Part shown: positions 23,872 to 47,806 of the stretch, in pieces | How positions within the stretch are numbered: the stretch's first letter is position 1 | Layout: each line of letters starts with the position of its first letter | Assembly: GCF_052049995.1 (NCBI RefSeq) | Contig: NZ_JBNGYX010000001.1 | Location: 57,850-121,849 of the forward strand | Source of the DNA: Candidatus Pelagibacter sp. | GTDB lineage: Bacteria; Pseudomonadota; Alphaproteobacteria; Pelagibacterales; Pelagibacteraceae | Reading direction: 5' to 3' | DNA: 64,000 bases | Translations under genes and position numbers: made by a program | Notes under the pieces: generated by a model | Told to the model about the DNA's origin: nothing | Seen by the model: only the letters and a program-made list of their open reading frames with translations | Database searches by the model: none

Positions 23872-23884
23872 AATAAAAAATATT

Positions 23885-23915
23885 AAAGCCCCCTAGTATT
23901 AGGGGGCTTTTTTTT
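23885..23915 (+). terminator. Intrinsic terminator-like hairpin after the SBP gene
   Basis: AAAGCCCCCTA-gtat-TAGGGGGCTTT followed by further Ts. Confidence 0.85.
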
Positions 23916-23935
23916 ATATAACCCAAATACTTTTT

Positions 23936-28586: not shown

Positions 28587-28591
28587 TTAGA

Positions 28592-28620
28592 TTGATTTAT
28601 AAAATAAGGTAAAATAAAAT
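28592..28620 (+). promoter_or_regulatory. Putative sigma70 promoter of glaH/csiD
   Basis: TTGATT (28592-28597), 17 nt spacer, TAAAAT (28615-28620), 5 nt before the ATG. Confidence 0.45.
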
Positions 28621-28625
28621 TTAGA

Positions 28626-29537: not shown

Positions 29538-29569
29538 TTCAATATAATCAATATAAAGTAACCAAAATT

Positions 29570-30337: not shown

Positions 30338-30342
30338 ATTAA

Positions 30343-31131
30343 ATGTCTGAAAATATTTTAGAGATTAATAATTTGAGTAAATATTTTGGTGGATTAGCTG
30401 CGGTTTCAGATTGTTCAATAAAAGTTAAAAGAGGAACTATCACTGGCATCATTGGGCCAAATGGATCTGGTAAAACAACTTTATTTAATTTAATTGCTGG
30501 AAACTTAAAATCCTCAGGCGGTAATGTTGTTTTTGATGATGAAAATATTACTGATGTTCCATCGTATGAGTTATTTTCTAAAGGGTTGTTAAGAACATTT
30601 CAAATTGCACATGAGTTTTCAAATTTATCTGTTTTAGAAAATTTAATGATGGTTCCAGGAAATCAATCTGGAGAAAAAATAATGACAGCATTATTTAAAC
30701 CGGGTTTAGTTGCACAAGAAGAGGCTGTGGTTAAAGAGAAAGCAAAAGAAGTTGTTGAATTTTTAAATTTAGGACATTTATCAAATGAGCTTGCTGGAAA
30801 TCTTTCAGGTGGACAAAAGAAATTATTAGAACTTGGAAGAACCATGATGGTTGATGCAAAATTAGTATTATTAGATGAAGTAGGAGCCGGAGTTAATAGA
30901 ACTTTGTTAAAAGATCTTGGAACTGCAATAGAAAAGTTAAATAAAGAAAAAGGTTATACTTTTTGTATGATTGAACATGATATGGATTTTATTGGAAGAT
31001 TATGTGATCCAGTAATTGTTATGGCTGAAGGATCAGTTTTGTTTGAAGGAACTGTTGATGAAGCAAAAAAAGATGAGAAAGTTATTGAAAGCTATCTTGG
31101 AAGAGGATCAAAATTAAAGGATACAAATTAA
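30343..31131 (+). CDS. livG: Liv-type ABC ATPase (LivG class), second system
   Basis: GPNGSGKTT, RTFQ, LSGGQKK, LDEVGAG, IEHDM. Confidence 0.92.
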   Translation: MSENILEINNLSKYFGGLAAVSDCSIKVKRGTITGIIGPNGSGKTTLFNLIAGNLKSSGGNVVFDDENITDVPSYELFSKGLLRTFQIAHEFSNLSVLENLMMVPGNQSGEKIMTALFKPGLVAQEEAVVKEKAKEVVEFLNLGHLSNELAGNLSGGQKKLLELGRTMMVDAKLVLLDEVGAGVNRTLLKDLGTAIEKLNKEKGYTFCMIEHDMDFIGRLCDPVIVMAEGSVLFEGTVDEAKKDEKVIESYLGRGSKLKDTN

Positions 31132-31838
31132 TGGCATATTTTGAAGGAATAGAAATGACAGGTGGTTATGGCAATGGTCCTGATATTATTAGTTCATGTT
31201 CAGTAAATGTTAATAAAGGTGAAATAGTTTCTATTTTAGGTCCTAATGGAGCTGGTAAATCAACTGCCATGAAAGCAATGTTGGGCTTGTTGAATTTAAA
31301 ATCTGGATCAGTAAAAATTGATGGTAAGGATATTTCAAAATTATCTCCTCAAGATCGAGTTAAGCAAGGTATTTCTTTTGTGCCACAGACTAAAAATGTT
31401 TTTTCAGGGATGACTGTTGAAGAAAATTTAGAAATGGGTGCATTTCTAGTTGAGGATGAAATCAAAAATATAATTGAGGAAATTTATGAATTATTTCCAA
31501 TTTTAAGAGAGAAAAGAAATCAGTTGGTTGGTGAACTTTCTGGAGGTCAAAGACAACAAGTAGCTCTAGGTCGAGCTTTAATGATTAAACCCACTGTTTT
31601 AATGTTAGACGAGCCAACCGCTGGTGTATCGCCAATTGTGATGGACGAATTATTTGATCATATTGTAAAAGTAAAAAGAACAAACGTTGCTATCTTAATG
31701 GTAGAACAAAATGCAAAACAAGCATTAAGCATTTCAGATAGAGGTTATGTGTTGGTCACTGGAGAAAATCGTTATTCAGGAACTGGAAAAGAATTATTAG
31801 ACGATCCAAGAGTAAGAAGCTCTTTTTTGGGAGGGTAA
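31131..31838 (+). CDS. livF: Liv-type ABC ATPase (LivF class), second system
   Basis: GPNGAGKST, LSGGQRQ, LDEPTAG, VEQNA. Confidence 0.92.
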   Translation: MAYFEGIEMTGGYGNGPDIISSCSVNVNKGEIVSILGPNGAGKSTAMKAMLGLLNLKSGSVKIDGKDISKLSPQDRVKQGISFVPQTKNVFSGMTVEENLEMGAFLVEDEIKNIIEEIYELFPILREKRNQLVGELSGGQRQQVALGRALMIKPTVLMLDEPTAGVSPIVMDELFDHIVKVKRTNVAILMVEQNAKQALSISDRGYVLVTGENRYSGTGKELLDDPRVRSSFLGG

Positions 31839-31839
31839 T

Positions 31840-32850
31840 ATGGATTTTATAAATGCAATAATTCTTTTATTAAATTATATTTTCATTCCTGCATTAACTT
31901 ATGGTTCTCAGTTAGCACTGGGTGCAATATTTGTAACACTTATTTATGGAATTTTACGATTTGCAAACTTCGCAACTGGTGACATGATGTCTTTTGGAAC
32001 CATGGCAACGATTTTATTTACATGGTATTTTCAATCTTTAGGTGTTTCTTTAGGTGTTTTACCTACTGCTTTATTAGCTATTCCTTTTGGAATAATTTTC
32101 ATGATTTTTTACATGCTTTTAATAGATAAGTTTGTCTTTAAGTATTACAGAAGTCAAAAAAGTCCTCCTGTCCAGTTTGCAATGGTAAGTATAGGAGTAA
32201 TGTTTGTAACACAAGCAGTGGTCAGAATTATAATTGGACCTGGTGATAGAAGATTTTTTGATGGTGAAAAATTCATTATTAAAGCTCGTGAATTTAAAGA
32301 GATGACAGGTTTAAATGAAGGTCTTGCATTGAAATCAACTCAAGTGATTACTATTTTTGTAACAATAGTTTTAGTCTCTTTATTATTTTGGTTTTTAAAT
32401 AGAACCAAAACTGGAAAAAGTATGAAAGCTTATTCTGATAATGAGGATCTTGCTTTGTTGTCAGGTATTGATCCTAAAAAAATAGTTTTAGTTACTTGGG
32501 TAATTGCTGGAATTTTAGCAACTATTGGTGGTGCGTTGTATGGTTTAGATAAAAGTTTTAAACCATTTACTTACTTTAATAATATGCTTCCTATTTTTGC
32601 TGCTGCAATTGTTGGAGGAATTGGAAATCCATTTGGAGCTTTTTTAGGTGGATATGTAATTGCTTTTTCTGAAATATTGCTCACTTACGCATATAAAAAA
32701 TTCTTTATGTATATTTTACCAGAAAGTATGGAGCCAAATAGTTTAGTTCAGTTACTATCTACAGATTACAAGTTTGCAGTCTCGTTCTCTATTCTTGTAA
32801 TTGTTTTAATTTATCGACCATCAGGAATATTTAAGGGGAAAGTATTGTGA
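31840..32850 (+). CDS. livH: Liv-type ABC permease (LivH class), second system
   Basis: YGILRFANFATGD, TKTGKSMKAYSDN, AAIVGGIGNPFGA. Confidence 0.88.
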   Translation: MDFINAIILLLNYIFIPALTYGSQLALGAIFVTLIYGILRFANFATGDMMSFGTMATILFTWYFQSLGVSLGVLPTALLAIPFGIIFMIFYMLLIDKFVFKYYRSQKSPPVQFAMVSIGVMFVTQAVVRIIIGPGDRRFFDGEKFIIKAREFKEMTGLNEGLALKSTQVITIFVTIVLVSLLFWFLNRTKTGKSMKAYSDNEDLALLSGIDPKKIVLVTWVIAGILATIGGALYGLDKSFKPFTYFNNMLPIFAAAIVGGIGNPFGAFLGGYVIAFSEILLTYAYKKFFMYILPESMEPNSLVQLLSTDYKFAVSFSILVIVLIYRPSGIFKGKVL

Positions 32851-34217
32851 GAAAAAACCTAAATGTAATCGCAGCTTACAGCATCATGATGGTGCTTATT
32901 TTAATGGTTGGAATATTTCAGTCTTGGAATATCGCTTTATCAATATTTAATCTTTGTTTAATTTCTGCGGTCATGACAATGGGTGCAAATATTCAATGGG
33001 GGTACGCTGGTTTAATTAATTTTGGAATTATGGGTTATACAGCTTTAGGTGGTTTAGCTGCGGTATTGATATCTGTCGATCCTGTTCAAGAGGCATGGAG
33101 GGCAGGAGGTTTCGACATCCTAATGTCGTTATGGCTGATAGTAGTAATGGTATTAGTTATAAGGTTTATTTTAAAAAGATTTGAAAAATCAAAAATAAGA
33201 ACATACAGCATAGCTGCAATAATAATTTCAGGTATTTTACTTATAAGATTTTCTGCAGAGCCAGGTATAGAAGCAATTGAAGCAGTAGATCCAGCTAAAA
33301 CTGGTTTCTTAGGAGGATTTGGATTACCAATTATATTTTCTTGGATAGTTGGAGCTCTTTTTGCAGGGGGTTTAGCTTTTATAGTTGGGAAAGTTGCGCT
33401 TGGTCTTAGAGCAGATTATTTAGCAATTGCCACTCTACTTATTTCTGAAATTGTTATTGCAATTATTAAACACGAGGATTGGCTCACAAGAGGGGTCAAA
33501 AATGTGATTGGATTAAAAAGACCTGCACCTTATGAGGTAGATCTGCAAACTACAGATTGGTTTATTAAATTAGTTGAAAAGTTTAATGCAGGAAAATTAA
33601 GTGTAATTGAGAATTTAGCTGATAGACAGGCTGCTTTAAACCAACTTGTTATAGAAGGTTCATCAGTATTTGTAAAACTGTGTTATTCAGGATTATTCTT
33701 AGTTGTAGTAATTATTCTTTTAATTTTAACTCAAAAGGCTCTTTATTCTCCATGGGGAAGAATGATGAGGGCAATTAGAGATAATGAGGAAGCTGCAAAT
33801 GCAATGGGTAAAAACGTTGTTAAACAACATTTACTAATTTTTATTTTAGGCTCAGCAATTGTTGGAATTGCAGGCGCAATGCTTGTTACACAAGATGGAC
33901 TATTTACTCCAGGAAGTTATAGACCCATGAGATATACGTTCTTAATTTGGGTAATGGTAATTGTTGGAGGAAGTGGAAATAATTTTGGGGCAATTTTGGG
34001 AGGATTTGTTGTTTGGTTCTTATGGATTGAAGCAGCACCAATATCATTATTTTTGATAAACTTTTTCACTGCGGGAATTCCTGAAACAAATGCACTTAAA
34101 GCTCATTTAATTGAAAGTGTTCCTTATTTCAGATTTTTACTGATGGGATTAGGATTGTTGTTTATAATGAGGTATCGACCTAAAGGTATACTTCCTGAAA
34201 AAATAGAAATAAAGTAA
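32847..34217 (+). CDS. livM: Liv-type ABC permease (LivM class), second system, long form
   Basis: QWGYAGLINFG, LRADYLAIATL, SPWGRMMRAIRDNE, VGGSGNN; GTG start. Confidence 0.88.
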   Translation: MRKNLNVIAAYSIMMVLILMVGIFQSWNIALSIFNLCLISAVMTMGANIQWGYAGLINFGIMGYTALGGLAAVLISVDPVQEAWRAGGFDILMSLWLIVVMVLVIRFILKRFEKSKIRTYSIAAIIISGILLIRFSAEPGIEAIEAVDPAKTGFLGGFGLPIIFSWIVGALFAGGLAFIVGKVALGLRADYLAIATLLISEIVIAIIKHEDWLTRGVKNVIGLKRPAPYEVDLQTTDWFIKLVEKFNAGKLSVIENLADRQAALNQLVIEGSSVFVKLCYSGLFLVVVIILLILTQKALYSPWGRMMRAIRDNEEAANAMGKNVVKQHLLIFILGSAIVGIAGAMLVTQDGLFTPGSYRPMRYTFLIWVMVIVGGSGNNFGAILGGFVVWFLWIEAAPISLFLINFFTAGIPETNALKAHLIESVPYFRFLLMGLGLLFIMRYRPKGILPEKIEIK

Positions 34218-35495: not shown

Positions 35496-36686
35496 TTATC
35501 TTTGTTTTTTAGTTTTGAATTTTCCACCTTTAACTTCTTGTTCTAAGAAAGAACCTTCAGCTTCACCAACGTCAGTAAAAGTTACTCCAGTAGCACCTTC
35601 GTAATTAATCTTTTTACCTTTTGCCAGTAAATCTAAACCTTTCTTAAGCTCACCTGGATAAATTTTAGTTCCAGGAGCGTTAGCAACATCCATTACATTT
35701 TTTGCAATAGATGCTCTGTCAGCAGAGTTACCTGCTTGCATTGCAAGAACGATTAAAGCAGCTGCATCGTAAGATTCACCTGTGTAAGGACCAGAAGCTT
35801 CTACACCTCCAGCTTTTGCAACTTCAGCAAATATACCTGCACCTTTACCAGTAGAACCTGGTAATGATCCAAATGATTTACTTAAATCTTTTCCGAATGC
35901 ATCAACTAAAGATTGACCAATCATACCATCTGATAAAATAAATCTATCAAACGCACCAGAGTCTAGAGAAGCTTGAATAATTCCTTTTCCTCCTTGGTCA
36001 AGATAACCAATAACTGCTACAGCATCACCACCAGCAGAAGCAAGAGTTGCTACTTCAGATGAGTAATCTGCTTTTCCATCCTCGTGAGCAGTTACAGTTG
36101 TAACTTTAATACCATGAGCTTCAACTGCTGCTTTGTAAACATCAGCCAAACCTTTACCATAGTCATTGTTTGTATAAGTGATTGCAACACTTTTTACTTT
36201 TCTGTCTTTAGTTATATCAGCTAAAATTTGACCACCTCTAGCATCTGATGGAGCAGTTCTAAAGAAATACCCTTTGTCATCTAGAGTTGTTAATCCTGGA
36301 GAAGTAGCTGAAGGTGAAATCATTACTACACCATTTGGTACAGCAACGTTAGTTGCAATAGCACCAGTTACACCTGAACAGTCTGCTCCCATAATTGCAG
36401 CTACACCACCTGAAATTAAACCTTCAGCTGCAGCTGTTGCCGCTGCTGAGTCAACACAAGTTGAGTCTGCTCTTACTGGCTCAATTTTTTTCCCACCTAA
36501 TAGCGAACCTGAATCAGAAGCTTCTTTAAATGCAAGCTCTGCAGATGCTGCCATAGCTGGAGTTAGAGATTCAATAGGACCAGTGAATCCTAAAATAATC
36601 CCCATTTTAATCGAATGTCCGTCTGCCATTACATTTGAACCAAAACTTGATACAAACATAAATACAGCGATAAATAGTTTTCTCAT
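35496..36686 (-). CDS. Liv-type ABC substrate-binding protein (LivJ-like)
   Basis: Signal peptide MRKLFIAVF..., LGFTGPIESL, ADSTC, SPSATSP, RTAPSDA; ATG 36686 with SD GAGGA preferred over 36710. Confidence 0.9.
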   Translation of the reverse strand: MRKLFIAVFMFVSSFGSNVMADGHSIKMGIILGFTGPIESLTPAMAASAELAFKEASDSGSLLGGKKIEPVRADSTCVDSAAATAAAEGLISGGVAAIMGADCSGVTGAIATNVAVPNGVVMISPSATSPGLTTLDDKGYFFRTAPSDARGGQILADITKDRKVKSVAITYTNNDYGKGLADVYKAAVEAHGIKVTTVTAHEDGKADYSSEVATLASAGGDAVAVIGYLDQGGKGIIQASLDSGAFDRFILSDGMIGQSLVDAFGKDLSKSFGSLPGSTGKGAGIFAEVAKAGGVEASGPYTGESYDAAALIVLAMQAGNSADRASIAKNVMDVANAPGTKIYPGELKKGLDLLAKGKKINYEGATGVTFTDVGEAEGSFLEQEVKGGKFKTKKQR

Positions 36687-36793
36687 TATCTTCCTCTTTA
36701 TTGTTAACAATTTATAAAAGCCAATTTAAGTATGAATACAATCAATATTCAATGACAAAATTATCCTATTTTTGATGGGTTAATTGATACAGA

Positions 36794-38275
36794 TTATCTT
36801 ATTGAGAAAGGGTCTAGAGAAGGTTCATCAGATGTATAGAACCAAGTTGTTTTTACCCGTGTGTAGTCTTTAACTGATTCAATTCCAGCCTCTTTTCCAT
36901 ACCCACTATCTTTAATTCCTCCAAATGGTGCAGATGGTGAAATTAATCTGTAAGTATTTACAAATGTTATACCTGCCCGGATAGCATTAGACACCCTCAT
37001 TCCTCTTGCGAGATCACTAGTATAAACACCTGAAGAAAGACCATATTGATTGTCGTTCATTAATTCAATTACCTCTTTTTCAGTGTCAAATTTCATTACT
37101 GATAATACAGGGCCAAAAAGCTCATTTTCAGCAGCCGGTAAATTATGATTTTCACACTCAATAATTGTTGGTGGAAAATAATAACCTTCATTTGAAAAAG
37201 GATGTCTTTTACCACCACATTTAATTTTTCCACCTTGTTCAACAGTTAATTTAATATTTTTTTCTATTACTTCTAATTGTTTAAAGTTACTTAAGGGACC
37301 CATTTCAGTATCAGAGTCCATTGGAGCACCTATTTTAATTTTTTCTGCTCTTGATGATAACTTATCTAAAAATTCGTTATAAATTCCTTTTTGTAAGTAC
37401 AACCTTGAACCTGCTATACAACTTTGACCACTTGCTCCAAATATTCCAGCAGTTATTCCATTAATTGCATTTTCTTGTTTAGCATCATCAAAAACAGCAA
37501 CAGGACTTTTGCCTCCTAATTCTAAACTTACCTCAGATAAATTTTCTGCAGAGTTTCTAATTATATGCCTTGCAGTTTCAGGGCCTCCTGTAAAAGCTAC
37601 TTTCTCAACTAAGTTGTGAGTAGTTAAAGCTTTACCACATGGATCTCCAAACCCAGAAACTACATTTACAACACCTTTTGGTATTCCAGTTTCTTCAACT
37701 AACTTTGCAAATTCAAACATAGTTGCTGGTGCTAGTTCAGAACATTTAATTACTACTGTATTACCCATAGCTAGAGCAGGAGCGACTTTTGTTGCAGTTA
37801 AAAACATTTGAGAATTCCAAGGAATGATAGCTGCAATAACACCTATTGGAATTCTTGTTGTGATCGCTTGAATATTTGGTTTATCTATTGGAAGAACTGT
37901 TCCTTCAACTTTGTCAGCTAAACCTGCATAGTAATCATAATATTCAGCAATGTATTTTGCTTGTTGATAAGTTTCTCTGTACAGTTTTCCTGTATCAATT
38001 GTTTCAATTTTTCCTAATAGTTCAGAATTTTCTCTAAGTTTATTTCCGATTGCTCTTAAATATTTTGCTCTATCTCTTGCAATCATCTTTGGCCATTCAC
38101 CTTCAAAAGCTTTTTGTGCAGCTTTTACAGCTCTATCAACATCATTTGCGCTAGCTTCAGGTACTATAGCCCAAGGCTTATTATTTTCTGGATTTAAAGT
38201 TTCAAAAGTTTTTTTTGTATCAGAGTCTACCCAGTGACCGTCTATAAACATTTGATATTTTTTTAATTCAGACAT
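36794..38275 (-). CDS. Aldehyde dehydrogenase, TgnC-like (trigonelline pathway dehydrogenase type)
   Basis: ALDH motifs ELGGKSP, GQSCIAGSR, ELFGPV. VAFTGGPETARHI.RNSAENL and the C-terminal SD.P..DPF..R match my recollection of Acinetobacter TgnC. Confidence 0.88.
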   Translation of the reverse strand: MSELKKYQMFIDGHWVDSDTKKTFETLNPENNKPWAIVPEASANDVDRAVKAAQKAFEGEWPKMIARDRAKYLRAIGNKLRENSELLGKIETIDTGKLYRETYQQAKYIAEYYDYYAGLADKVEGTVLPIDKPNIQAITTRIPIGVIAAIIPWNSQMFLTATKVAPALAMGNTVVIKCSELAPATMFEFAKLVEETGIPKGVVNVVSGFGDPCGKALTTHNLVEKVAFTGGPETARHIIRNSAENLSEVSLELGGKSPVAVFDDAKQENAINGITAGIFGASGQSCIAGSRLYLQKGIYNEFLDKLSSRAEKIKIGAPMDSDTEMGPLSNFKQLEVIEKNIKLTVEQGGKIKCGGKRHPFSNEGYYFPPTIIECENHNLPAAENELFGPVLSVMKFDTEKEVIELMNDNQYGLSSGVYTSDLARGMRVSNAIRAGITFVNTYRLISPSAPFGGIKDSGYGKEAGIESVKDYTRVKTTWFYTSDEPSLDPFSIR

Positions 38276-39053
38276 TATTTATATGTTTCATTATTGCATT
38301 ATTTACTTCGTCTGCATATTCAATACTGCATAAATGTTTTCCATTTTTAATTTCAACATATGTTGAATTTAGTATATCTTTATTTAAATTTTTTGACATA
38401 TCAGGCGTAGATCCTGGATCATCTGATCCTGTTATAATTAAGGTATTTGTTTTAATATTTTTTATATTTTCAAGATTGTCCTCATAGTTTGCAAATATTT
38501 CATAAGCTTTTATAAAATTTTCTTGATCAATTCCTTTCTTATTAAGAATTTTCATAAACTCATCGTATAATTCAGGGTTTTGCTCAAGGTACTCATCTGA
38601 AAACCATCTCTTCATTGCCATTTGAGATATTGGCATATTTTTTTTTGCTAAATTTACTCTATCAATTACATTTTGTCTTTCTTCAGCTGTCCTTTTGTAA
38701 GTAGTGGAAATTAGAGTTAAGGAATTTAAATAATTTTCATATTTTGAAGCAAATTCAATTGCAATCAAAGATCCGATAGAAAAGCCGATTAAATTAAATT
38801 TATCTATCTTTAGGTTATTTACTAAATTTGATAATTGATCAATAAAATTTTCCATTGATAAATTTGGTTCTTTAAAGGGTGTTTTTCCATGTCCTAACAG
38901 ATCGTAAGTTATAAATGAATTATCTTTAAAAAATTCAATTTGTGGTTTCCACATTTGCTGATTTAAACCAACCCCATGAATAAAAATTATTGGTAACGAA
39001 TTTTTATTATTAAAATAATAATGATTTTGATTGTTATCAAAATTGTAAGACAT
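38268..39053 (-). CDS. Alpha/beta hydrolase, TgnD-like
   Basis: IHGVG, nucleophile elbow GFSIG, YKRT..ER..VI.R, TGSDDPGST, catalytic His in GKHL; ATG 39053 (TTG 39056 in track). Confidence 0.85.
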   Translation of the reverse strand: MSYNFDNNQNHYYFNNKNSLPIIFIHGVGLNQQMWKPQIEFFKDNSFITYDLLGHGKTPFKEPNLSMENFIDQLSNLVNNLKIDKFNLIGFSIGSLIAIEFASKYENYLNSLTLISTTYKRTAEERQNVIDRVNLAKKNMPISQMAMKRWFSDEYLEQNPELYDEFMKILNKKGIDQENFIKAYEIFANYEDNLENIKNIKTNTLIITGSDDPGSTPDMSKNLNKDILNSTYVEIKNGKHLCSIEYADEVNNAIMKHINNV

Positions 39054-39056
39054 CAA

Positions 39057-39641
39057 TTATTTATCGATGCCCATCTCTTTCATGTCTTGATATCTGTCAC
39101 CTGTTCTTGCATGAGCTCGTCCGGTTGGAGCACCTCCAATAGCTACAACTATTTCATCTTCATTAGGGGCATCGTGAATTGTAAATTCATGCGTTAGATA
39201 AAAAGGTCTTAATCCAGCATCAGTTTTATGCATCATTGGAATTGAAATTTTTGCTCCCGCAGGGCCTCTAGTGTTAGTAAAACTTAAATAAGAAGTTCCA
39301 CCAACGGCATCTCTAAATTTATTTCCAAATCTTAAAGTATGAATAAATGCAGACGCATGTTCTATTTCACCGTTCAATCCAACCATCGCAGCTTTCCCAT
39401 AAGCTAAAATTTTTTCACCTGATCCAATTTCTTTTATTAACTCTGGCACCAAAAGATCTCCTAATTTAGGCGCAAGATCTAATATTTCTGGTTTTAAATC
39501 TTCTACAAAACCTTTTCCGGCCCAAGGATTTTCTATAACAGCTGCAACTGAAACTAACAAAACAGGCTCTTTAGCTTTTTTTCCACCCTCTATAAAAGTT
39601 TTATCTACAAATTTTGCAAATTTTCTAAGTTTTAAATCCAT
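39057..39641 (-). CDS. Amino acid synthesis family protein (DUF1185-like; TgnF-type accessory protein)
   Basis: AAVIENPWAG, YGKAAMVGLNGEIEHA, DAPNEDEIVVA, GRAHAR.GDR. Confidence 0.85.
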   Translation of the reverse strand: MDLKLRKFAKFVDKTFIEGGKKAKEPVLLVSVAAVIENPWAGKGFVEDLKPEILDLAPKLGDLLVPELIKEIGSGEKILAYGKAAMVGLNGEIEHASAFIHTLRFGNKFRDAVGGTSYLSFTNTRGPAGAKISIPMMHKTDAGLRPFYLTHEFTIHDAPNEDEIVVAIGGAPTGRAHARTGDRYQDMKEMGIDK

Positions 39642-39644
39642 TTA

Positions 39645-40811
39645 CTAGCTAGCTCTTTGAATGTTCGTATCTATCGGTTTTATATTTGGAATTACTTCTT
39701 CTGTAAATAATTTGATGCTTCTCATGCAGTCTTCGTGTTTAATTCCTGGAAAGTTAGACCAGACTTGTAAATTTTGAAGATTTAATTCTTGTTGAAGTTC
39801 TTTTATTTTTTCAATTACAAACTCAGGTGTTCCAAACAATAGATTTCTTTTATGAAGAAATTCATAATTTAATAAATCTAGTTTATTTTTTGTCTCTGGT
39901 AATTTTTCATCTGGATCCATATGATTTCCCAATCCTCTCCAATGACAAACCCATCTCATATAATTTACAATATGTTCTCCAGCCATTTTTTCAGCCTCTT
40001 CCATAGTTTCTGCAACAAACATATCTCTAACCAAACTAATACCTTCCCCTAGCGGTACATCTCTATTTTCAGCTTTAGATTTTGCATCTTTATAAATTTC
40101 AAATCTTTTTTTCAAAGCTTTTACAGTTGGTATCCACATAATTGTATTAAGCCCATTTTCTGCTGCCCACTGAATTGATCTTTCTCCATCAACTACTTGA
40201 GAAATTGGTGGAAAAGGTTTTTGATAAGGTTTTGGTAATACAGATATTTGTTTTAATTCATTTGTTTTTAAATCGACAACATTTTCTTTTGGAGGACTCA
40301 TATCGTGTTGCCAAATAAAATTTGGTGAGGGATAAGTATAGAATTCACCTTGGTGAGAAAAGAAGTCCTCAGACCAAGCTTTTTTCATTATGTCCAATGT
40401 TTCAGAAAATAGTCTAAAATTTTTTGCTTGATCTTTTAAGTCAGCTTCTTTGTTCATGTTAATGGCTTCTCTTCCGTAAACTCCTCTTCCAATACCAACT
40501 TCCACTCTTCCTTTTGACATTTGGTCAAGGGTAGCAATATCTTCTGCAAGTCTTATAGGATTATGAAATGTTATTACGTTGCAAGCTTGTCCTAAACGAA
40601 TATTTTTAGTTCTTGCAGCAGCATCAGTACACATCATTAGAGGATTAGTGCAAGACTCCATTCCCTCATGATTAAAATGGTGTTCGGTATACCAAATAGA
40701 ATTCCAATTATTTTGATCACAATATTCAGTGATTTCTCTAGCTTCGTCTAGAAGTTGGGTATAAGGTTTTTTATCCCAATTAGTAGTATTACAAAAATAT
40801 CCAAAGTTCAT
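39645..40811 (-). CDS. Luciferase-like (LLM class) flavin-dependent monooxygenase
   Basis: IWYTEHHF, NPLMM..DAAARTKNIRLG, PIRLAEDIATLDQMSKGRVEVGIGRG; ATG 40811 with SD GGAGG preferred over GTG 40853. Confidence 0.9.
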   Translation of the reverse strand: MNFGYFCNTTNWDKKPYTQLLDEAREITEYCDQNNWNSIWYTEHHFNHEGMESCTNPLMMCTDAAARTKNIRLGQACNVITFHNPIRLAEDIATLDQMSKGRVEVGIGRGVYGREAINMNKEADLKDQAKNFRLFSETLDIMKKAWSEDFFSHQGEFYTYPSPNFIWQHDMSPPKENVVDLKTNELKQISVLPKPYQKPFPPISQVVDGERSIQWAAENGLNTIMWIPTVKALKKRFEIYKDAKSKAENRDVPLGEGISLVRDMFVAETMEEAEKMAGEHIVNYMRWVCHWRGLGNHMDPDEKLPETKNKLDLLNYEFLHKRNLLFGTPEFVIEKIKELQQELNLQNLQVWSNFPGIKHEDCMRSIKLFTEEVIPNIKPIDTNIQRAS

Positions 40812-40892
40812 AAAGCCTCCTTTAAAAATTAATTTAAAGACGACCGATCCCACTTTCGTAAATTTTTGAATTTAACGACGAGTTATGTATCG
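40812..40892 (-). promoter_or_regulatory. Candidate structured 5' leader of the LLM operon
   Basis: Hairpin 40820-40839 (CTTTAAA/TTTAAAG) abuts the SD; second stem 40856-40878 (9 bp, one bulge); locally GC-richer patch. Confidence 0.35.
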
Positions 40893-40916
40893 CTTTATAG
40901 TTAAACTTTATTATTA

Positions 40917-41885
40917 CTAGCGCTGATATTCAATAAATTTCTTTAAGGATTTGTTAAGAAATTTCTCATAAATTGGACCATTATTTTTGAATTTGCTTCC
41001 GTTTAAAAATGATTGGTTCATTTTGAAATCATAGGAAGGTTCAAAGAAAAAAGGAACAGAGAGTCTCTTACTTTTATTCCATAAAACTCTGTGATTAGTT
41101 GCTTTAAATTTACCTTTGCTTAGAAACTCCAAAGCTCTACCAGTGTTTACTACTAAAGCTTTTTGTTTAAATGGCACATCATACCATTTTTTATTTTTTC
41201 TATTTTGTACCTGCAATCCACCTTTTCTATCTTGATAGAGAACTGTGAATACACCACTATCAACATGTGTTTCACATCCAAGAGCAACCCCATCTTGTTT
41301 AGATATTTCTACTGGTTTTGTCTGATTAGGATAATAATTAAATCTTAATGTGCTTAATGTTTTTAATCTTGAAAAAGCTACACTAGAAATATCAGGATTT
41401 TTTTTATTAAGTTTTATTACACTCTTAAATAAAGTTTCACTCAATCTATAAATATTATCAAAATATTTGTTTAAAATATTTATTGAACTTTTTTTAAAAC
41501 ACTCATTTAGATTAAGAAATTCTATGTATTGATTATTTAGATTTGAAGAATATTTTTTAGTTACTTTTAAATCACCTATATCCAAACCTTCTTTTCCGTT
41601 CACATCATTAGGAAAATATCCTCTGTAAAGATTTTTATTTTTTTTATTCCATTTTTTAGGTGATAATTTTCTTTTCTTAGTGTCTGGTAAATTAAAAAAT
41701 TTATGCCCAACTTCGCATGTTTTTTTAATTTCTTTTAGATTAATTCCATGTCCAGTAATTTGAAAAAATCCTACATTGACACAAGCTTTTTCAATTTCTT
41801 TAATTGTTTTAAATGCATTTTGAGTTTCAAAATTATTTTTTATTAAAGGAGAAATATTAATTGTTGGTATAAAGTTCTTGCTCAT
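40917..41885 (-). CDS. Isopenicillin N synthase family Fe(II)/2OG oxygenase
   Basis: DIOX_N start (PTINISPL...GFFQITGHG), HVD, distal His in ATNHRV, RxS in RLSVPFF. Confidence 0.9.
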   Translation of the reverse strand: MSKNFIPTINISPLIKNNFETQNAFKTIKEIEKACVNVGFFQITGHGINLKEIKKTCEVGHKFFNLPDTKKRKLSPKKWNKKNKNLYRGYFPNDVNGKEGLDIGDLKVTKKYSSNLNNQYIEFLNLNECFKKSSINILNKYFDNIYRLSETLFKSVIKLNKKNPDISSVAFSRLKTLSTLRFNYYPNQTKPVEISKQDGVALGCETHVDSGVFTVLYQDRKGGLQVQNRKNKKWYDVPFKQKALVVNTGRALEFLSKGKFKATNHRVLWNKSKRLSVPFFFEPSYDFKMNQSFLNGSKFKNNGPIYEKFLNKSLKKFIEYQR

Positions 41886-42835
41886 CTTCTAACTGGTGTT
41901 TCTGTTGCAATAAATTGCTCTTTAACTCTCTCTCTCATGTAAATATAAATTCCAGCTGCTATAATACACGCAACACCAATAAACGTTCTGGTCGTTGGTA
42001 CTTCATTAAATAAAAAGTAGCCAGGTATCATAGACATAATTATTAATGAATACTCAAACAAAGAAACAACAGAAGGTGATGCAACTATATATGCTGAAAA
42101 AATACAAACAAAAGCTATTGATGCAGCAAAACCAAAAAATAAAATAAATTTCCATGTATATTCAATATTTGAAAACCATTCTCTAAAGATGAATTGTATT
42201 GTTGGATCAAAGTTTGAATTATTAAGCTGACCACTACCCATAAAAATATATAAAATTACACACAGTAATATTGCAATCAGATAAAAGTAATATAGCTGAG
42301 TGTTAACATCATCTTTATCAGATGTATATTTAGTGATAGTCATAGATGCAGCATAACAAAATGCACAAAAAACTGGTAAAAGACTTCGATATTCAAAGTC
42401 TGAAAAATTTGGATTTAAGACTATAAAAACGCCAACAAAACCAAAAACAATTGCTGACCACCTTCTAATACCAATAGTTTCTTTTAAAAATAACTTTGCA
42501 AATATTGATACGAAAAAAGGGGAGGAAAAAAATAGAGCATTTGCTGTTGCTAAAGGCATAAAAGTTAGTGAGATAAAAAAAGCAGAAAAAGCAATAAAAT
42601 GCAAAACCACTCTTAGTATTGTTAAAAAAGGATAGTGAGTTTTAAGAGAGACTTTTTGTTTTCTGAATTTTATATAACCAAATAGCAAAATTGCTGCAAC
42701 AAAATATCTTCCAAAAAATATTTCATATAAAGCTGCTTTTTCAAAAATGAATTTAATTAAAGCATCCTGCATTGCAAAAAATGTCATTGCAGTAATAATT
42801 AAAAGTATTCCTTTTGAATTATTATTAGCGCCCAT
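41882..42835 (-). CDS. EamA/DMT family transporter
   Basis: FAMQDALIK, FSSPFF, ETIGIRRW, SVVSLFEYS. Confidence 0.88.
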   Translation of the reverse strand: MGANNNSKGILLIITAMTFFAMQDALIKFIFEKAALYEIFFGRYFVAAILLFGYIKFRKQKVSLKTHYPFLTILRVVLHFIAFSAFFISLTFMPLATANALFFSSPFFVSIFAKLFLKETIGIRRWSAIVFGFVGVFIVLNPNFSDFEYRSLLPVFCAFCYAASMTITKYTSDKDDVNTQLYYFYLIAILLCVILYIFMGSGQLNNSNFDPTIQFIFREWFSNIEYTWKFILFFGFAASIAFVCIFSAYIVASPSVVSLFEYSLIIMSMIPGYFLFNEVPTTRTFIGVACIIAAGIYIYMRERVKEQFIATETPVRR

Positions 42836-42875: not shown

Positions 42876-43337
42876 TTATTTCTTTAATTTAGAAGAGAAT
42901 AGAAGACCTTCGCTTGAAAATTTTGACTTATTTTCTTCAATAAAATCTTTCATTAATTTTACTTTTTCTTCTTCAAATTCAGTAACCTTTCTTTTGCTTA
43001 AATCTATATATAGCGATATCCATTCCATAGAAGCTGAAGGTTTGTTAGTTTTTTGAGAAATCATTTCCATTTTTAAATGTAATCTTTTTTTATCATGATC
43101 AAAATAAGTCAGATTAACATTGACCATTTCTCCCTCTTTTACCTCATTTAAATATTTAGTATTAGTTTCAACAACCATTGTACTTCTATTAAGATTTTTT
43201 GCTGCTGTTCCACCCATTTTAAATTTTTCAAGAGCAACTTCCCATGCTTGATCAAAAACAAGCACATAATAAGCCATGTTCATATGATTGTTGTAATCAA
43301 CCCATTCCTTTTTTACTTCGAAAGTTTTTAATAACAC
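42876..43337 (-). CDS. Hot-dog fold acyl-CoA thioesterase (CdhB/carnitine-pathway-like)
   Basis: EWVDYNNHMNMAYY motif, YLNEV, YFDHDKKRLHL; GTG start 1 nt after the ATPase stop. Confidence 0.82.
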   Translation of the reverse strand: MLLKTFEVKKEWVDYNNHMNMAYYVLVFDQAWEVALEKFKMGGTAAKNLNRSTMVVETNTKYLNEVKEGEMVNVNLTYFDHDKKRLHLKMEMISQKTNKPSASMEWISLYIDLSKRKVTEFEEEKVKLMKDFIEENKSKFSSEGLLFSSKLKK

Positions 43338-43338
43338 T

Positions 43339-44364
43339 TTATGATCTTGTTAATGAAGACTGTAATTCTTGGTTTGAAATGTATCCTTTTACATTTCCAC
43401 TTTTATCAACCACTTCACAATTTGAGTCAGAACAAACAATTTTTGGTAAAAAATCTTCAATAAACTCATCTTCATTTACTTTTATTAAGTTTGATTTATC
43501 TATGTCATTAGCTTGATCAGCAGTTTTCATAATAATTTTTGCCTTGATGACTTTTGCTCTATTCACATCTTTTACAAAAGCTTTTACATAATCATCAGCA
43601 GGGTTCATAATAATTTCCTCAGGGGTTCCTACTTGGACTAATTTTCCAGAGTTTAATATCCCGATATGATCACCCAATCTTAATGATTCATCTAGATCGT
43701 GAGTAATAAATACAATTGTTTTTTTTAGTTCTGCTTGAAGATCAATTAGTTGTTTTTGCATGTCACTTCTAATCAGAGGATCTAGAGCACTGAAAGCCTC
43801 ATCCATTAACATGATATCTGTATCGGTAGCTAATGCTCTTGCTAAACCAACACGTTGCTGCATTCCTCCTGATAATTGAGCGGGGTATTGATTTTCAAAA
43901 CCAGTTAGACCAACTGCATCAATTTTTTCCATTGAGATTTTATTTCTTTCATCTTCACCTTTCCCTTGCATTTCTAGTCCGTATCCAACATTTTGAATTA
44001 CTGTTTTATGCGGGAATAAACCAAATCTTTGAAACACCATGCTCATTTTATGTCTTCTAAATTCAATAAGCTTATCTTTATCAAGTGACATTACATTCGT
44101 GCCCTCAACTAAAATTTCACCATCAGTTGGATCGATTAGTCTATTTAAATGTCTTATTAGTGTTGATTTTCCCGATCCAGATAAACCCATACAAACAAAG
44201 GTTTCTCCTTCTTCAATTTTAAGCGAAACATTATCTAATCCAACGGTATGACCAGTTTGCTCTAAAATTTCGTCTTTTGTTGCACCATCTTTTACCATTG
44301 GCAGTACAGAAGAAGGGTTGTTTCCAAAAATTTTGTAAACGTTGTTGATCTCAATTTTTGACAT
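43339..44364 (-). CDS. Glycine betaine/L-proline/carnitine ABC ATPase (ProV/OpuAA class)
   Basis: KIFG, MGLSGSGKST, SMVFQRFGLFPH, LSGGMQQRVGLARALA, MDEAFSALDPLIR, FITHDLDES. Confidence 0.92.
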   Translation of the reverse strand: MSKIEINNVYKIFGNNPSSVLPMVKDGATKDEILEQTGHTVGLDNVSLKIEEGETFVCMGLSGSGKSTLIRHLNRLIDPTDGEILVEGTNVMSLDKDKLIEFRRHKMSMVFQRFGLFPHKTVIQNVGYGLEMQGKGEDERNKISMEKIDAVGLTGFENQYPAQLSGGMQQRVGLARALATDTDIMLMDEAFSALDPLIRSDMQKQLIDLQAELKKTIVFITHDLDESLRLGDHIGILNSGKLVQVGTPEEIIMNPADDYVKAFVKDVNRAKVIKAKIIMKTADQANDIDKSNLIKVNEDEFIEDFLPKIVCSDSNCEVVDKSGNVKGYISNQELQSSLTRS

Positions 44365-44489
44365 GATGTAATGTTCTAACAGTTACAATCATCATATGTA
44401 AAACAAATATTATACAACTTATAATTGTTTTAAGAAATAACAGTTGTATTTATTTGCTTTTGCTTATTTTTTAAATAAGAATTTTATTT
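44365..44489. promoter_or_regulatory. Divergent promoter region with repeated motifs
   Basis: Direct repeat TAACAGTT at 44377 and 44438; inverted repeat ATACAACT (44412-44419) and AGTTGTAT (44442-44449). Confidence 0.45.
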
Positions 44490-45221
44490 ATGGCGCAAAC
44501 AGATAAAGATGTGCGACTAGAGTTGTCTGCTCTCTATAGAATTTTACATATGTACGGCATGACAGACCTTGCTAACCAATGTGCAGGGGCAAGATCTGCT
44601 GAAGATAAGAATTGTTCTTTTGTTCATCCATACGGAATGTTTTATGAGGAAATTACCGCTTCATCTTTAGTTAAAATTGATCAAAACGGAAAAAAATTAG
44701 ATTCAGACGGACCTTGGTTAAATGACGGATGCATTAATCTTGCTCAATGGATTTTTAATAAAAGAAATGATGTAAACTTTTATGTTCACGGACATGCCAA
44801 CGATGTGATGGCAGTTGGAGGTACTAAAGAAGGTTTAATGTATCTTTCACAGGCCGCAGTTTATTTAAATCATCTTGTTGGATATATTGATTATGAATTT
44901 GTTGAGGACAAAGAATTTGGAAGTAAATTTGAAAACCTAATTAGTAAACACGATATTTTGATTACTAGAAATCATGGATATTACACAGTAGGAAAAACTG
45001 CTGCAGAAGCATTTTTCAGAGCTTATTATCTAGAGCAAGCATGTTCAGTTCAGGTAAAAAACCTTGCCATGGGGTTAAACAAACATGAAATAGATAAACA
45101 GAAAGCTGCATATTTTTGGGAAAACATGAGCGACTCCGATGATTATAATTATGATGGAAAAACGGAGTGGGCTGCTTTATTAAGAAAACTAGAGAGAGAA
45201 CATTCAAATTATAAAAATTAA
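44490..45221 (+). CDS. Class II aldolase/adducin family protein
   Basis: PYGMFYEEITASSLVKID, metal ligands HGH and RNHG, AEAFFRAYYLEQACSVQ. Confidence 0.9.
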   Translation: MAQTDKDVRLELSALYRILHMYGMTDLANQCAGARSAEDKNCSFVHPYGMFYEEITASSLVKIDQNGKKLDSDGPWLNDGCINLAQWIFNKRNDVNFYVHGHANDVMAVGGTKEGLMYLSQAAVYLNHLVGYIDYEFVEDKEFGSKFENLISKHDILITRNHGYYTVGKTAAEAFFRAYYLEQACSVQVKNLAMGLNKHEIDKQKAAYFWENMSDSDDYNYDGKTEWAALLRKLEREHSNYKN

Positions 45222-46372
45222 TGGAACAAAATTTTACAATAAAAAATATAACTAAAAATTCTACAAATTTAGAAATTGACTGGAGTGATGGAAAAAAAAG
45301 TAAATTTAATTATTTATGGCTAAGAGACAATTGTCCAACTGCACATGACAAAGACTCACGTCATAGAATGTTTAATATTTTAAAAGTATCAAACAAAATT
45401 AATCCAAAAAAATTTGCAGTAAATAATGAAGGCAAGCTTGAAATTGAATGGAGTGAAGGTGACCATATAAGTTATTATGACCAAAATTGGTTAAGAGAAA
45501 ACTGCTATACTATAAAAAATAATTTAGATTATAAATCTCCATATCAACTTTGGGACAACTCTTTACAAAATGACCTGAAGTCAATTGAGATTGAACATGA
45601 TGAAATTATGAGTTCATATGAGGGACTTGTCAGATGGTTAGAGCTCTTACACCACACTGGAATTGCTATAGTAAAAAATGCTCCAACTGAAAATAATTCT
45701 GGCTTTAAAATTTTAAACAGAATCAGCCATACTAGAGAAACTTTTTTTAAAACACCTTTTGAAGTAATTAATATCCCTAAACCAAATAATTCTGCTTACA
45801 CAGCACATGCCCTAAGAAATCATATGGATTTACCATGGTTTGAAACACCACCTGGTTATCAATTTCTTCATTGTTTAGTTAATTCTGCAACAGGAGGAGA
45901 CTCATCCGCTGTAGATGGCTTTGCAGTTGCAGATTATTTAAGAAAAAATGAGAAAGAAATATTTGATACGCTAGTAAACGTTCATTTAAAATTTAGAGAC
46001 ATGGATTATACACAAGAGTCTGTTAGAAGTTATTACGCACCCGCGATATCTCTAACAAAAGATAATGATTACCATGATATTCGGTTTAGCGTAGCAACTA
46101 TGGATGCTTTAGATTGTCATCCTGATTTGATGGATAAAGTTTATAAAGCTCATCACCGATTTGGAAATTTACTTCATGACGATCAATTCCAGATTAAATT
46201 TAGATTAGGACCAGGTGATATTTTTTCTTTTAACAATAGACGATTATTACACGGTAGAACTGAATATGATCCAAACTCAGGACATAGACATTTGCAAGGT
46301 TATTACATGGATCGAGACGAAATTATTGGGAGACTAAGATATTTAAAAAATTCTGTTAACTCCAACCAGTAA
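45221..46372 (+). CDS. Gamma-butyrobetaine/trimethyllysine hydroxylase-like Fe(II)/2OG dioxygenase (DUF971 + TauD)
   Basis: IDWSDG, WLRDNC, WLREN, NSAYT..L..HMD, FLHC, GGDS..VDGF, FNNRRLLHGR, RHLQGYY. Confidence 0.9.
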   Translation: MEQNFTIKNITKNSTNLEIDWSDGKKSKFNYLWLRDNCPTAHDKDSRHRMFNILKVSNKINPKKFAVNNEGKLEIEWSEGDHISYYDQNWLRENCYTIKNNLDYKSPYQLWDNSLQNDLKSIEIEHDEIMSSYEGLVRWLELLHHTGIAIVKNAPTENNSGFKILNRISHTRETFFKTPFEVINIPKPNNSAYTAHALRNHMDLPWFETPPGYQFLHCLVNSATGGDSSAVDGFAVADYLRKNEKEIFDTLVNVHLKFRDMDYTQESVRSYYAPAISLTKDNDYHDIRFSVATMDALDCHPDLMDKVYKAHHRFGNLLHDDQFQIKFRLGPGDIFSFNNRRLLHGRTEYDPNSGHRHLQGYYMDRDEIIGRLRYLKNSVNSNQ

Positions 46373-47786
46373 CATTCTTTACTTCAAGATATTCCTCAAG
46401 ACCCCAAACACCTCCTTCTCTCCCATTACCTGATTGTCTGTAACCACCAAATGGAGTTCCGGAATCTGCTCCATTTCCATTTATGTAAACACATCCAGAT
46501 CTTAATTTTTTAGCAACTCTGTGTGCTTTTTCTCGGTCTTCAGTTTGCAAATAATTTCCAAGACCATAAGAAGTATCATTTACAATATTGACTGCCTCAT
46601 CTTCAGTCCCAAATGGAATTATAGATAATACAGGTCCAAAAATTTCCTCTTTAGCAATTCTCATTTCATTAGTTACATTTGTAAATATAGTTGGTTTGAT
46701 AAAGTATCCTTTGTTCAAACCGTTTGGTAACTCAGGTCCACCTGCTGCAAGAGTTGCGCCTTCAGAAATACCACTTTCAATAAGATTTATAATTTTCTCA
46801 TATTGAATTTTAGAAATTACTGGTCCTATATGATCTCCCTTTTTTGAAGCTTGATCTACTTTAATTTTGTTTGCTTCATCAACAGCTTCTTTAACAGCTC
46901 TATCGTAAATTGATTTTTCAACAAGCATCCTTGTTGGTGCATCACAAGATTGACCAGAATTGCTCATTACATTTCTAATACCGTCTCTTACTGCATCTTT
47001 ATAACTATCAGCAAAAACAATATTTCCACCTTTTCCACCTAATTCAAGACAAACTCTTTTAATTGTTTCAGCAGCATTTTTTGAAATTAATCTTCCTGCT
47101 CTTGTTGAACCTGTGAAAGAAACCATATCAATATCAGGGTGGGTTGAAATGTGGGTTCCCACTCCTGCGCCGTCTCCATTTACCAAATTAAATACACCTT
47201 TTGGAAAACCTACTTCATCAATCATTTCTGCAAATAGCATTCCAGAAATAGGAGCAATTTCTGATGGTTTTAAAATCATTGTACATCCAGTTGCGAATGC
47301 AGGAACGACTTTTAAAGTAATTTGATTAATAGGCCAATTCCACGGTGTGATTAATCCACAAACTCCAATTGGCTCATAATAGATATGATTATTTGATTTA
47401 TTATCAAAGTGTTCATCAAATTTAAAATTTTTTAATCTTAAAATAAAATCATCTAAATGATCTTTCCCTGAAGCTGTTTGAACATCTGTTGCCCAATCCA
47501 TTGGCGCACCCATTTCAAGAGAAATAGCCTCAGCCATTTCATTAAATCTTTTTTTATAAACTGATGATAATTTTTCAAGTAAACTGAGCCTTTCTTTCTT
47601 GCTAGTTTCTTTCCAAGTATTAAAGGCATTTTTTGCTGATTTGACAGCTAAATCTGTATCCTCTTTTGAACCTAAAGAAATAACAGCAAACGGATCTTCA
47701 TTGCATGGATTAATTACGTCAAAATCATTTTTTTTAATTGGATCAACCCACTGACCATTTATGTAAAATTTCCTTTTATCTAACAT
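46356..47786 (-). CDS. Aldehyde dehydrogenase family protein
   Basis: ITPWNWP, FTGSTRAG, ELGGKG, NSGQSCDAPTR, EEIFGPV; stop overlaps the dioxygenase stop region by 17 nt. Confidence 0.93.
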   Translation of the reverse strand: MLDKRKFYINGQWVDPIKKNDFDVINPCNEDPFAVISLGSKEDTDLAVKSAKNAFNTWKETSKKERLSLLEKLSSVYKKRFNEMAEAISLEMGAPMDWATDVQTASGKDHLDDFILRLKNFKFDEHFDNKSNNHIYYEPIGVCGLITPWNWPINQITLKVVPAFATGCTMILKPSEIAPISGMLFAEMIDEVGFPKGVFNLVNGDGAGVGTHISTHPDIDMVSFTGSTRAGRLISKNAAETIKRVCLELGGKGGNIVFADSYKDAVRDGIRNVMSNSGQSCDAPTRMLVEKSIYDRAVKEAVDEANKIKVDQASKKGDHIGPVISKIQYEKIINLIESGISEGATLAAGGPELPNGLNKGYFIKPTIFTNVTNEMRIAKEEIFGPVLSIIPFGTEDEAVNIVNDTSYGLGNYLQTEDREKAHRVAKKLRSGCVYINGNGADSGTPFGGYRQSGNGREGGVWGLEEYLEVKNVTGWS

Positions 47787-47806
47787 TTTTTATCTTAACA
47801 CATTAA

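Follow-up and report, generated by a model that had tools for sequence, protein, structure and literature searches.

A probable Tgn-type ring-cleavage operon of Pelagibacter with a divergent luciferase-like monooxygenase and a conserved leader RNA

The stretch of DNA analysed here, 64,000 nucleotides from Candidatus Pelagibacter sp. (assembly GCF_052049995.1, contig NZ_JBNGYX010000001.1, positions 57,850 to 121,849 of the forward strand) and hereafter called the window, contains four co-directional open reading frames (ORFs) on its minus strand, from 40811 to 36794, encoding in this order a luciferase-like monooxygenase (LLM), a DUF1185 protein, an alpha/beta hydrolase and an aldehyde dehydrogenase (ALDH). 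The comparisons reported below indicate that the operon, preceded by a leader RNA specific to SAR11, probably encodes an oxidative ring-cleavage pathway of the Tgn type, whose substrate would be an N-methylpyridinium betaine and, among these, most likely trigonelline. The source genome, which belongs to this abundant group of ocean bacteria, is 1.31 Mb long and 99.96% complete, with a GC content of about 31%.

The tight coupling of the four genes between 36794 and 40811, already proposed in a previous reading of the sequence alone, was confirmed with exact coordinates (Table 1): in the order of the operon, the junctions consist of a 3 nt spacer, a second 3 nt spacer and an 8-nt overlap. The LLM gene starts at the ATG at position 40811, downstream of the ribosome-binding site AAAGGAGG, and a GTG located further upstream is not used; its close homologues, collected by a protein word-index search which returned near-identical, unnamed SAR11 sequences only, are all 388 aa long. 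For the hydrolase the start codon is the ATG at 39053, 3 nt downstream of the TTG selected by the ORF lister, and this 261-aa form is on public record. Exact matches to the LLM protein are found in 224 public contigs, and the gene is 99% identical to its counterpart in Candidatus Pelagibacter communis SCGC AAA795-O19. Public annotation of the four genes is generic only, none of the four proteins scores above the curated cut-off of an NCBIfam model, and a literature search did not turn up any paper describing the LLM-DUF1185-hydrolase-ALDH cassette. Promoter and terminator scans gave a signal no better than that obtained in shuffled sequence (the DNA is AT-rich).

Two standard tgn clusters, obtained by tblastn of a plasmid collection, were used for comparison. 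The main one is located on plasmid NZ_CP094644 of Acinetobacter sp. PK01, where tgnA, tgnB and tgnC are named by the NCBI annotation pipeline and are flanked by DUF1185 and hydrolase genes, a NCS1 permease and a succinate-semialdehyde dehydrogenase; TgnD, TgnF and TgnE were assigned in this cluster by gene position. The other one, on plasmid NZ_CP063399 of Rhizobium sp. SL42, consists of genes for a GntR regulator, a DUF1185 protein, a hydrolase, a flavin reductase, a LLM and an ALDH. The enzymes TgnA to TgnE convert trigonelline to methylamine, formate, CO2 and succinate. In Acinetobacter baylyi ADP1 the trigonelline cluster, said to have been described by Perchat et al. in 2018, is reportedly arranged as tgnR / tgnF-D-A-B-C-P-E. 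TgnF is a DUF1185 protein, and has been reported to stimulate the TgnE-dependent oxidation of succinate semialdehyde (PMC7913881).

The ALDH and the DUF1185 protein each group with their counterparts in these clusters. The window ALDH is 50% identical to the Acinetobacter tgnC product and 51% identical to its Rhizobium orthologue, against only 34% for the succinate-semialdehyde dehydrogenase found at the TgnE position in Acinetobacter. In the ALDH tree, cassette ALDHs and TgnC form a single clade (support 99), from which the TgnE-type enzymes and the other ALDHs of the genome are absent, and within it the SAR11 ALDHs share a subclade with TgnC itself (support 100); the catalytic motifs ELGGKSP and GQSCIAG are seen in the alignment of the window protein. 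Similarly, the window DUF1185 protein is 57% and 59% identical to the products of the TgnF-position gene of Acinetobacter and of the Rhizobium gene, respectively. In the corresponding tree it falls, with the other cassette proteins and TgnF, into one clade (support 99), apart from 37 tandem-pair paralogues. DUF1185 genes are present in 81 of 401 Alphaproteobacteria genomes, mostly as tandem pairs; the one in the window is a single copy in its genome. The DUF1185 protein of the window, a putative accessory protein of the pathway, is well placed in the TgnF subfamily.

The hydrolase is more distant. Its identity to the product of the Acinetobacter TgnD-position gene is 27%, over the full length (E 2e-41), but that gene is the best genome-wide match of the window hydrolase in four of the five complete genomes containing a standard tgn cluster, with a near tie in the fifth, and the TgnD clade is nested among the cassette hydrolases in a tree built without true outgroups. 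In addition, both the window hydrolase and the TgnD-position protein have the PDB entry 2xua as their top structural match. Within SAR11 the hydrolase is the fastest evolving gene of the cassette, with identities of 45-75% compared to 75-90% for the ALDH; since it is the least conserved member, a distant match to the TgnD-position gene says little in favour of a different substrate. The sequence-only reading had claimed that the ALDH and the hydrolase both share distinctive motifs with TgnC and TgnD: the ALDH does group with TgnC, and for the hydrolase the link is given by the best matches, the tree and the common structural neighbours, not by such motifs.

The LLM, the only one encoded in the source genome, has the PF00296 fold and contains a motif, E43-H44-H45, which is invariant across its clade. 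The Glu-His-His triplet, present in the LuxA-like LLMs of both the tgn clusters and the cassette, corresponds to the catalytic residues of LuxA. The best PDB matches of the window protein are LuxA and other two-component FMNH2-dependent LLMs (1brl/1luc, 8cbb, 7bip, 4uwm; E 6e-26 to 2e-16), with which it shares the PF00296 TIM barrel, the similarity being mainly confined to the 160 N-terminal residues; unlike LuxA, it has no LuxB-like partner, and the substrate class differs. Window LLM and TgnB have a common set of LuxA-like proteins as top PDB neighbours. Nevertheless, identity to the product of the Acinetobacter gene annotated as tgnB is only 24%, and in the LLM tree the cassette protein falls within a clade of 31 sequences (support 98) with TgnB outside, whereas true TgnB orthologues are 58-74% identical across Alpha- and Gammaproteobacteria. 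The proposal of a divergent oxygenase, similar to TgnB at the family level only, was thus supported.

Best matches were compared in both directions. TgnB is the best or the only match of the window LLM in all five complete genomes containing a standard tgn cluster; conversely, five Gram-positive genomes with the cassette lack a TgnB orthologue, as expected if the cassette replaces the standard cluster, and in three of them the cassette LLM is the best match of TgnB. Taken together, partners similar to TgnC, TgnD and TgnF and a LLM outside the TgnB clade suggest a downstream module which is Tgn-like at the subfamily level, and in which a distantly related enzyme has taken the place of TgnB. To judge from the sequences, this module is combined with two different oxygenase lineages.

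The distribution of the cassette was evaluated by a scan including one genome per species. At least 31 species of Pelagibacteraceae were found to encode the LLM (72-99% identity). It occurs in 60 of the 201 sampled Pelagibacteraceae; 56 of these come from the window's genus, which contributed 77 species genomes to the sample. This last count is based on the LLM, and the full gene order LLM, DUF1185, hydrolase, ALDH was read in the loci inspected. Outside SAR11, 13 loci with the cassette were detected, belonging to Bacillota, Actinomycetota and another alphaproteobacterium; such conservation shows that the arrangement is not due to chance. Carriers in which the LLM is 47-56% identical to that of the window are Alteribacillus, two Bacillus, Sporosarcina, Sinomonas, Arthrobacter, Nocardia, three Streptomyces, Actinoallomurus, Actinomadura and an Actinomycetota metagenome-assembled genome (MAG); the only homologue in this identity range that lacks the full set is that of a Stellaceae MAG (56%), which has no cassette gene close by apart from a hydrolase match. 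In the listed carriers the gene order is the one observed in SAR11, except in Sporosarcina, where the hydrolase is upstream. Below about 45% identity, LLM homologues, most of them from Dehalococcoidia, are not accompanied by cassette genes, with the sole exception of an alphaproteobacterium (G302).

The G302 locus (L054; contig C116, 1-20000) contains LLM genes together with genes for an ALDH, an aldo-keto reductase, a DUF1185 protein, a hydrolase, a PotABCD-like ATP-binding cassette (ABC) importer and a MFS protein. The genome is high in GC, and its TgnB orthologue is encoded separately (contig C110, 34940-35971). Among plasmid-borne sequences, the closest LLM (35%) is found on plasmid NZ_OY970401 of Peribacillus frigoritolerans (L002), adjoining genes for a hydrolase of the N-acyl-homoserine-lactonase family, RibB and riboflavin kinase, so that this LLM locus, too, has flavin-supply genes of its own.

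Genes surrounding the Gram-positive cassettes provide information on the possible substrate and on the flavin supply. A GntR gene precedes most non-SAR11 cassettes. Transporters of the BCCT type (betaine/carnitine/choline) are found in four Gram-positive loci, and NCS1 permeases homologous to the one of the Acinetobacter tgn cluster in eight; the association with a quaternary-amine transporter and a nucleobase-type permease points to a cationic N-heterocycle as the substrate. A second ALDH, grouping with the TgnE-position dehydrogenase, is also encoded nearby, so that these loci resemble the tgn clusters in having a GntR regulator, a NCS1 permease and a separate succinate-semialdehyde dehydrogenase. 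No methylamine or sarcosine-oxidase-type genes were found near the Gram-positive cassettes. Finally, these loci include a flavin mononucleotide (FMN) reductase of the MsuE/SsuE type, along with riboflavin kinase or RibB, which suggests that the LLM is a two-component, FMNH2-dependent enzyme. The reductase differs from that of the tgn clusters, as the PF01613 reductase TgnA is absent and a PF03358 FMN reductase is found in its place, encoded alongside the cassette in Bacillus, for example; no reductase is linked to the cassette in SAR11.

In SAR11 the cassette differs from the tgn clusters in further respects. No succinate-semialdehyde dehydrogenase (TgnE), NCS1 permease or GntR regulator is found next to the cassette in the window, and the genes follow the order oxygenase-F-D-C, instead of F-D-A-B-C. 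The place of a protein regulator is taken by a structured leader RNA, located directly upstream of the LLM gene. The leader is almost invariant in 20 SAR11 loci, in which the upstream DNA and genes differ. A covariance model (R1) detected it in all of 13 further SAR11 loci, for a total of 33 out of 33 loci with different flanks, and finds one match only in the source genome (E 1.3e-20). No match to the model was found in any non-SAR11 cassette, and none of the 4,227 families of Rfam 15 reaches its threshold for the leader, a difference from known riboswitches.

The consensus fold of the leader consists of a helix P1 (CGAU/AUCG), a helix P2, the loop of which varies greatly in length, and a hairpin at the 3' end, whose 3' arm pairs the ribosome-binding site AAGGAGG. 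Overall, 96.8% of the alignment cells are paired. Compensatory changes were observed at four pairs, including three within the helix containing the ribosome-binding site; since the aptamer-like helices are nearly invariant, covariation is limited to the expression platform and one additional pair. The minimum-energy fold of the single window sequence agrees with the consensus (z = -1.8). These features make the leader a candidate riboswitch acting on translation. A short structured leader in front of catabolic genes, where the genome encodes few protein regulators, is reminiscent of the SAR11 riboswitches, and the pairing of the ribosome-binding site within the 3' hairpin is a feature of translational "off" riboswitches. 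A leader able to sequester the ribosome-binding site, in a lineage which has lost the GntR regulator, would fit a ligand-controlled translation of the operon. The structure data are also compatible with a leader bound by a protein or by a small RNA, rather than by a ligand.

On these grounds a pathway may be proposed. In the first step the LuxA-like LLM, using FMNH2 and O2, would open the ring, generating a N-formyl enamine aldehyde or lactol. The ALDH, as expected for a member of the TgnC subfamily, would then oxidize the aldehyde or lactol to a dicarboxylate, and the TgnD-related hydrolase would convert this to succinate semialdehyde, or a close analogue, with release of formate, methylamine and CO2. 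The DUF1185 protein, as a member of the TgnF subfamily, would assist the last steps, and an unlinked dehydrogenase would produce succinate. The presence of BCCT and tgn-like NCS1 transporters near the Gram-positive cassettes, combined with the lack of TgnB orthologues in the same genomes, favours the second option of the sequence-only reading, with trigonelline, or a close relative, entering through a distinct oxygenase clade.

A number of observations weigh against this interpretation, and keep it at the level of a probable one. As the LLM is not a TgnB orthologue, the regiochemistry of the first step, and even the class of the substrate, can be deduced only from the partner proteins. The flavin supply in SAR11 is not obvious: PF01613, the family of TgnA, is absent from the source genome, although a control search matched 13 of 14 genomes, and flavin reductases of the families PF00970 and PF00881 are absent from it as well. 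The only FMN_red-family (PF03358) gene is AzoR-like and lies about 125 kb from the cassette (contig C1, 223097-223552); across 201 SAR11 genomes no association was found between this gene, which is near-core in the genus, and the cassette. Similarly, a succinate-semialdehyde dehydrogenase is not linked to the cassette in SAR11, and the relationship between the hydrolase and TgnD, because of its low identity and of a tree lacking real outgroups, is weaker than had been claimed. The G302 genome contains both a TgnB orthologue (61%) and a cassette of the window type, with two LLMs at 44% identity, a hint that the two types of cluster may serve different substrates. Finally, in many SAR11 species and in Sporosarcina the cassette includes an additional thiamine diphosphate (ThDP)-dependent enzyme similar to Xsc and acetolactate synthase; the trigonelline pathway is not known to need a ThDP enzyme.

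In SAR11 this enzyme is 567 aa long, and its gene is translationally coupled between those of the LLM and the DUF1185 protein, as in strain HIMB1748 (L070:11167-12870), in HIMB1611 and in the loci L071-L081. It comes closest to the sulfoacetaldehyde acetyltransferase and acetolactate synthase families, without reaching the cut-off of either. The Sporosarcina enzyme (L096:973-2703) is 55% identical to the SAR11 one, and a more distant ThDP enzyme is encoded near the G302 cassette.

Among the alternatives to a pathway for trigonelline or a similar betaine, the one that survives best, though still unlikely, is that the operon acts on a different ring compound, which is not a N-methylpyridinium carboxylate. 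Candidates would be a N-heterocycle derived from nicotinate or pyridoxine, a pyridone, an imidazolium or piperidine betaine, or else a cyclic ketone or lactone attacked in a Baeyer-Villiger fashion, with the hydrolase working as a lactonase. The LLM clade is indeed distinct from TgnB and uncharacterised, the 3,6-diketocamphane monooxygenase 4uwm is among the PDB neighbours of the LLM, and the best named matches of the hydrolase are 3-oxoadipate enol-lactonases; the co-occurrence of both cluster types in G302, and the ThDP enzyme as an optional member of the cassette, may be read in the same direction. However, 2xua, the top match of the Acinetobacter TgnD-position protein too, is itself an enol-lactonase, and such similarity is therefore no argument against a TgnD-like function. 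Moreover, membership of the TgnC and TgnF subfamilies implies intermediates similar to those of the trigonelline pathway, and the BCCT and tgn-like NCS1 transporters of the Gram-positive loci point to a cationic N-heterocycle.

Homarine (N-methylpicolinate), processed by the same enzyme logic, is a weaker candidate still. It is an isomer of trigonelline, abundant in the sea (PMC8269262; PMC13236597), and we infer that cleavage between C5 and C6, followed by the action of the ALDH and the hydrolase, would yield 2-oxoglutarate, methylamine and formate. For homarine, however, a separate pathway is known: the homarine operon homABCD(E)R, identified genetically and published in 2026 (Ferrer-Gonzalez et al., Nat Microbiol, PMC13236597), is reported to occur in SAR11, including 120 Pelagibacter genomes. 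The architecture taken for comparison was an adjacent homA and homB, with homC and homD within 10 kb. The hom operon resembles the cassette in being devoted to the catabolism of a N-methylpyridinium carboxylate in marine bacteria, SAR11 included, in the presence of an ALDH (HomD) and of a hydrolase-type protein (HomC, a predicted peptidase), and in a proposed pairing of a flavin supplier with an oxygenase. The parts are nevertheless different. HomA (about 700 nt, with a FAD-binding domain) and HomB (about 1,700 nt) are not matched, by size or domain, by any of the cassette genes (1167, 585, 786 and 1482 nt), as judged by a comparison of architectures only; in addition, hom is mostly gamma- and alphaproteobacterial, as opposed to a cassette shared by SAR11, Bacillota and Actinomycetota.

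Since the published homarine pathway uses other enzymes, homarine becomes less likely as the substrate, and its choice as the most plausible one in the sequence-only reading was not upheld. Ring opening of the TgnAB type has also been argued to be sterically unlikely on homarine (Heal et al., PMC8269262), and the ALDH and DUF1185 proteins of the cassette belong to the subfamilies of the trigonelline enzymes. On the other side, a search around the five ALDH genes of the source genome revealed no neighbourhood resembling hom, and the strain may therefore lack the published pathway: besides the cassette gene, one lies in a sdh-mdh-suc operon (contig C2), one in an inositol-like cluster with a ThDP enzyme (contig C3), and two, both in the window, in betaine-type and arginase contexts.

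Lastly, that the operon is an ordinary orthologue of the known tgn operon is scarcely credible: the nearest relatives of three of the four cassette proteins are indeed found in tgn clusters, but the oxygenase is far too divergent (24%, against 58-74% among true orthologues), TgnA, TgnE, the permease and the GntR regulator are absent from the SAR11 cassette, and the order of the genes is not the same.

The Tgn-type pathway for a N-methylpyridinium betaine thus remains the preferred interpretation, and the genomic surroundings of the operon may be considered in this frame. The SAR11 cassette is located within a variable island of genes of the quaternary-amine or betaine type, whose content differs between species (Table 1). 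In other SAR11 strains the island carries a carnitine-like module, with a 3-hydroxyacyl-CoA dehydrogenase and a BKACE enzyme. A pair of genes for an EamA permease and a 2-oxoglutarate (2OG)-Fe(II) oxygenase, found upstream of the leader in the window, precedes the LLM in many SAR11 loci (e.g. L060-L062, L070-L081, L087-L089) and is missing from others, similar to that of genome G389 (L064-L068, L082, L084, L086); a link between this pair and the pathway is possible.

In some SAR11 genomes, such as that of the uncultured Pelagibacteraceae member AG-911-L18 (L071:533-5058), a second, unrelated LLM of 344 aa is encoded about 9 kb upstream of the cassette, with a hydrolase of its own. Next to these two genes is a carnitine-like module, comprising a 3-hydroxyacyl-CoA dehydrogenase and a BKACE enzyme together with a thioesterase and two aldolases, one of class II and one of the HpcH type. 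On the opposite side of the cassette, a substrate-binding protein encoded on the minus strand at 35496..36710 was considered as its possible binding protein and rejected, as it appears, from synteny of the csiD locus, to correspond to SAR11_1361, a protein shown to bind C4/C5 dicarboxylates (Clifton et al. 2024, PMC11485210). Its constant position next to the cassette is explained by its place at the edge of a neighbouring conserved locus, which occupies 35496-36710 and 22633-34217 of the window and has the cassette at its border. The ALDH gene of contig C2 (94676-96169; L141:7677-9170) lies between sdhB and mdh within a sdh-mdh-sucCD-sucA operon; its product is a candidate housekeeping succinate-semialdehyde dehydrogenase, which could complete the pathway.

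Table 1. Features of the window in and around the operon. Positions refer to the window.
Feature	Position	Strand	Remarks
Luciferase-like monooxygenase (LLM), LuxA-like	39645..40811	-	388 aa, 1167 nt; PF00296, E 1.6e-45
DUF1185/AA_synth protein	39057..39641	-	194 aa, 585 nt; PF06684, E 4e-65
Alpha/beta hydrolase	38268..39053	-	261 aa, 786 nt; PF00561; nucleophile motif GFSIG
NAD(P)-dependent ALDH	36794..38275	-	493 aa, 1482 nt; PF00171, E 4e-160
Conserved 5' leader RNA	40812..40898	-	about 90 nt (92-nt leader), directly before the LLM
2OG-Fe(II) oxygenase	40917..41885	-	Pfam; between the EamA permease and the leader
EamA (DMT) permease	41882..42835	-	Pfam; region directly upstream of the cassette
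Quaternary-amine island	42876-49617		ProV-type ABC ATPase (no adjacent permease or binding protein), carnitine-dehydrogenase-C-terminal-like thioesterase, class II aldolase, GBBH/TauD-like dioxygenase, second ALDH, 3-hydroxyisobutyrate-dehydrogenase-like gene, EamA permease

The diet of SAR11 in terms of dissolved organic compounds is a central open question for the cycling of carbon and nitrogen in the ocean, and, of the small nitrogenous metabolites of phytoplankton, trigonelline and its isomers belong to the more abundant ones. The operon, which about three quarters of the species sampled in the window's genus possess, now gives rise to a testable prediction, with a short list of substrates, four enzymes and a RNA of about 92 nt which may be screened for ligands. 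Cultured isolates carrying it are available, for example HIMB1748 and HIMB1611, and HIMB1593 and HIMB1782 are named among the members of the ALDH cluster. The use of two oxygenase lineages with one TgnC/D/F module is relevant to the evolution of flavoenzymes, and also to the annotation of this cassette in Bacillus, Streptomyces, Arthrobacter and related bacteria. A more far-reaching proposal, which we regard as speculative and rather less probable than its converse, joins the two novel elements: the leader would represent a new riboswitch class for trigonelline, a related betaine or an intermediate, and the LLM clade a second, independently recruited family of pyridinium ring-opening enzymes, working in SAR11 without a dedicated reductase. 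If this were true, Pelagibacter would be a major oceanic sink for nitrogen-rich pyridinium osmolytes.

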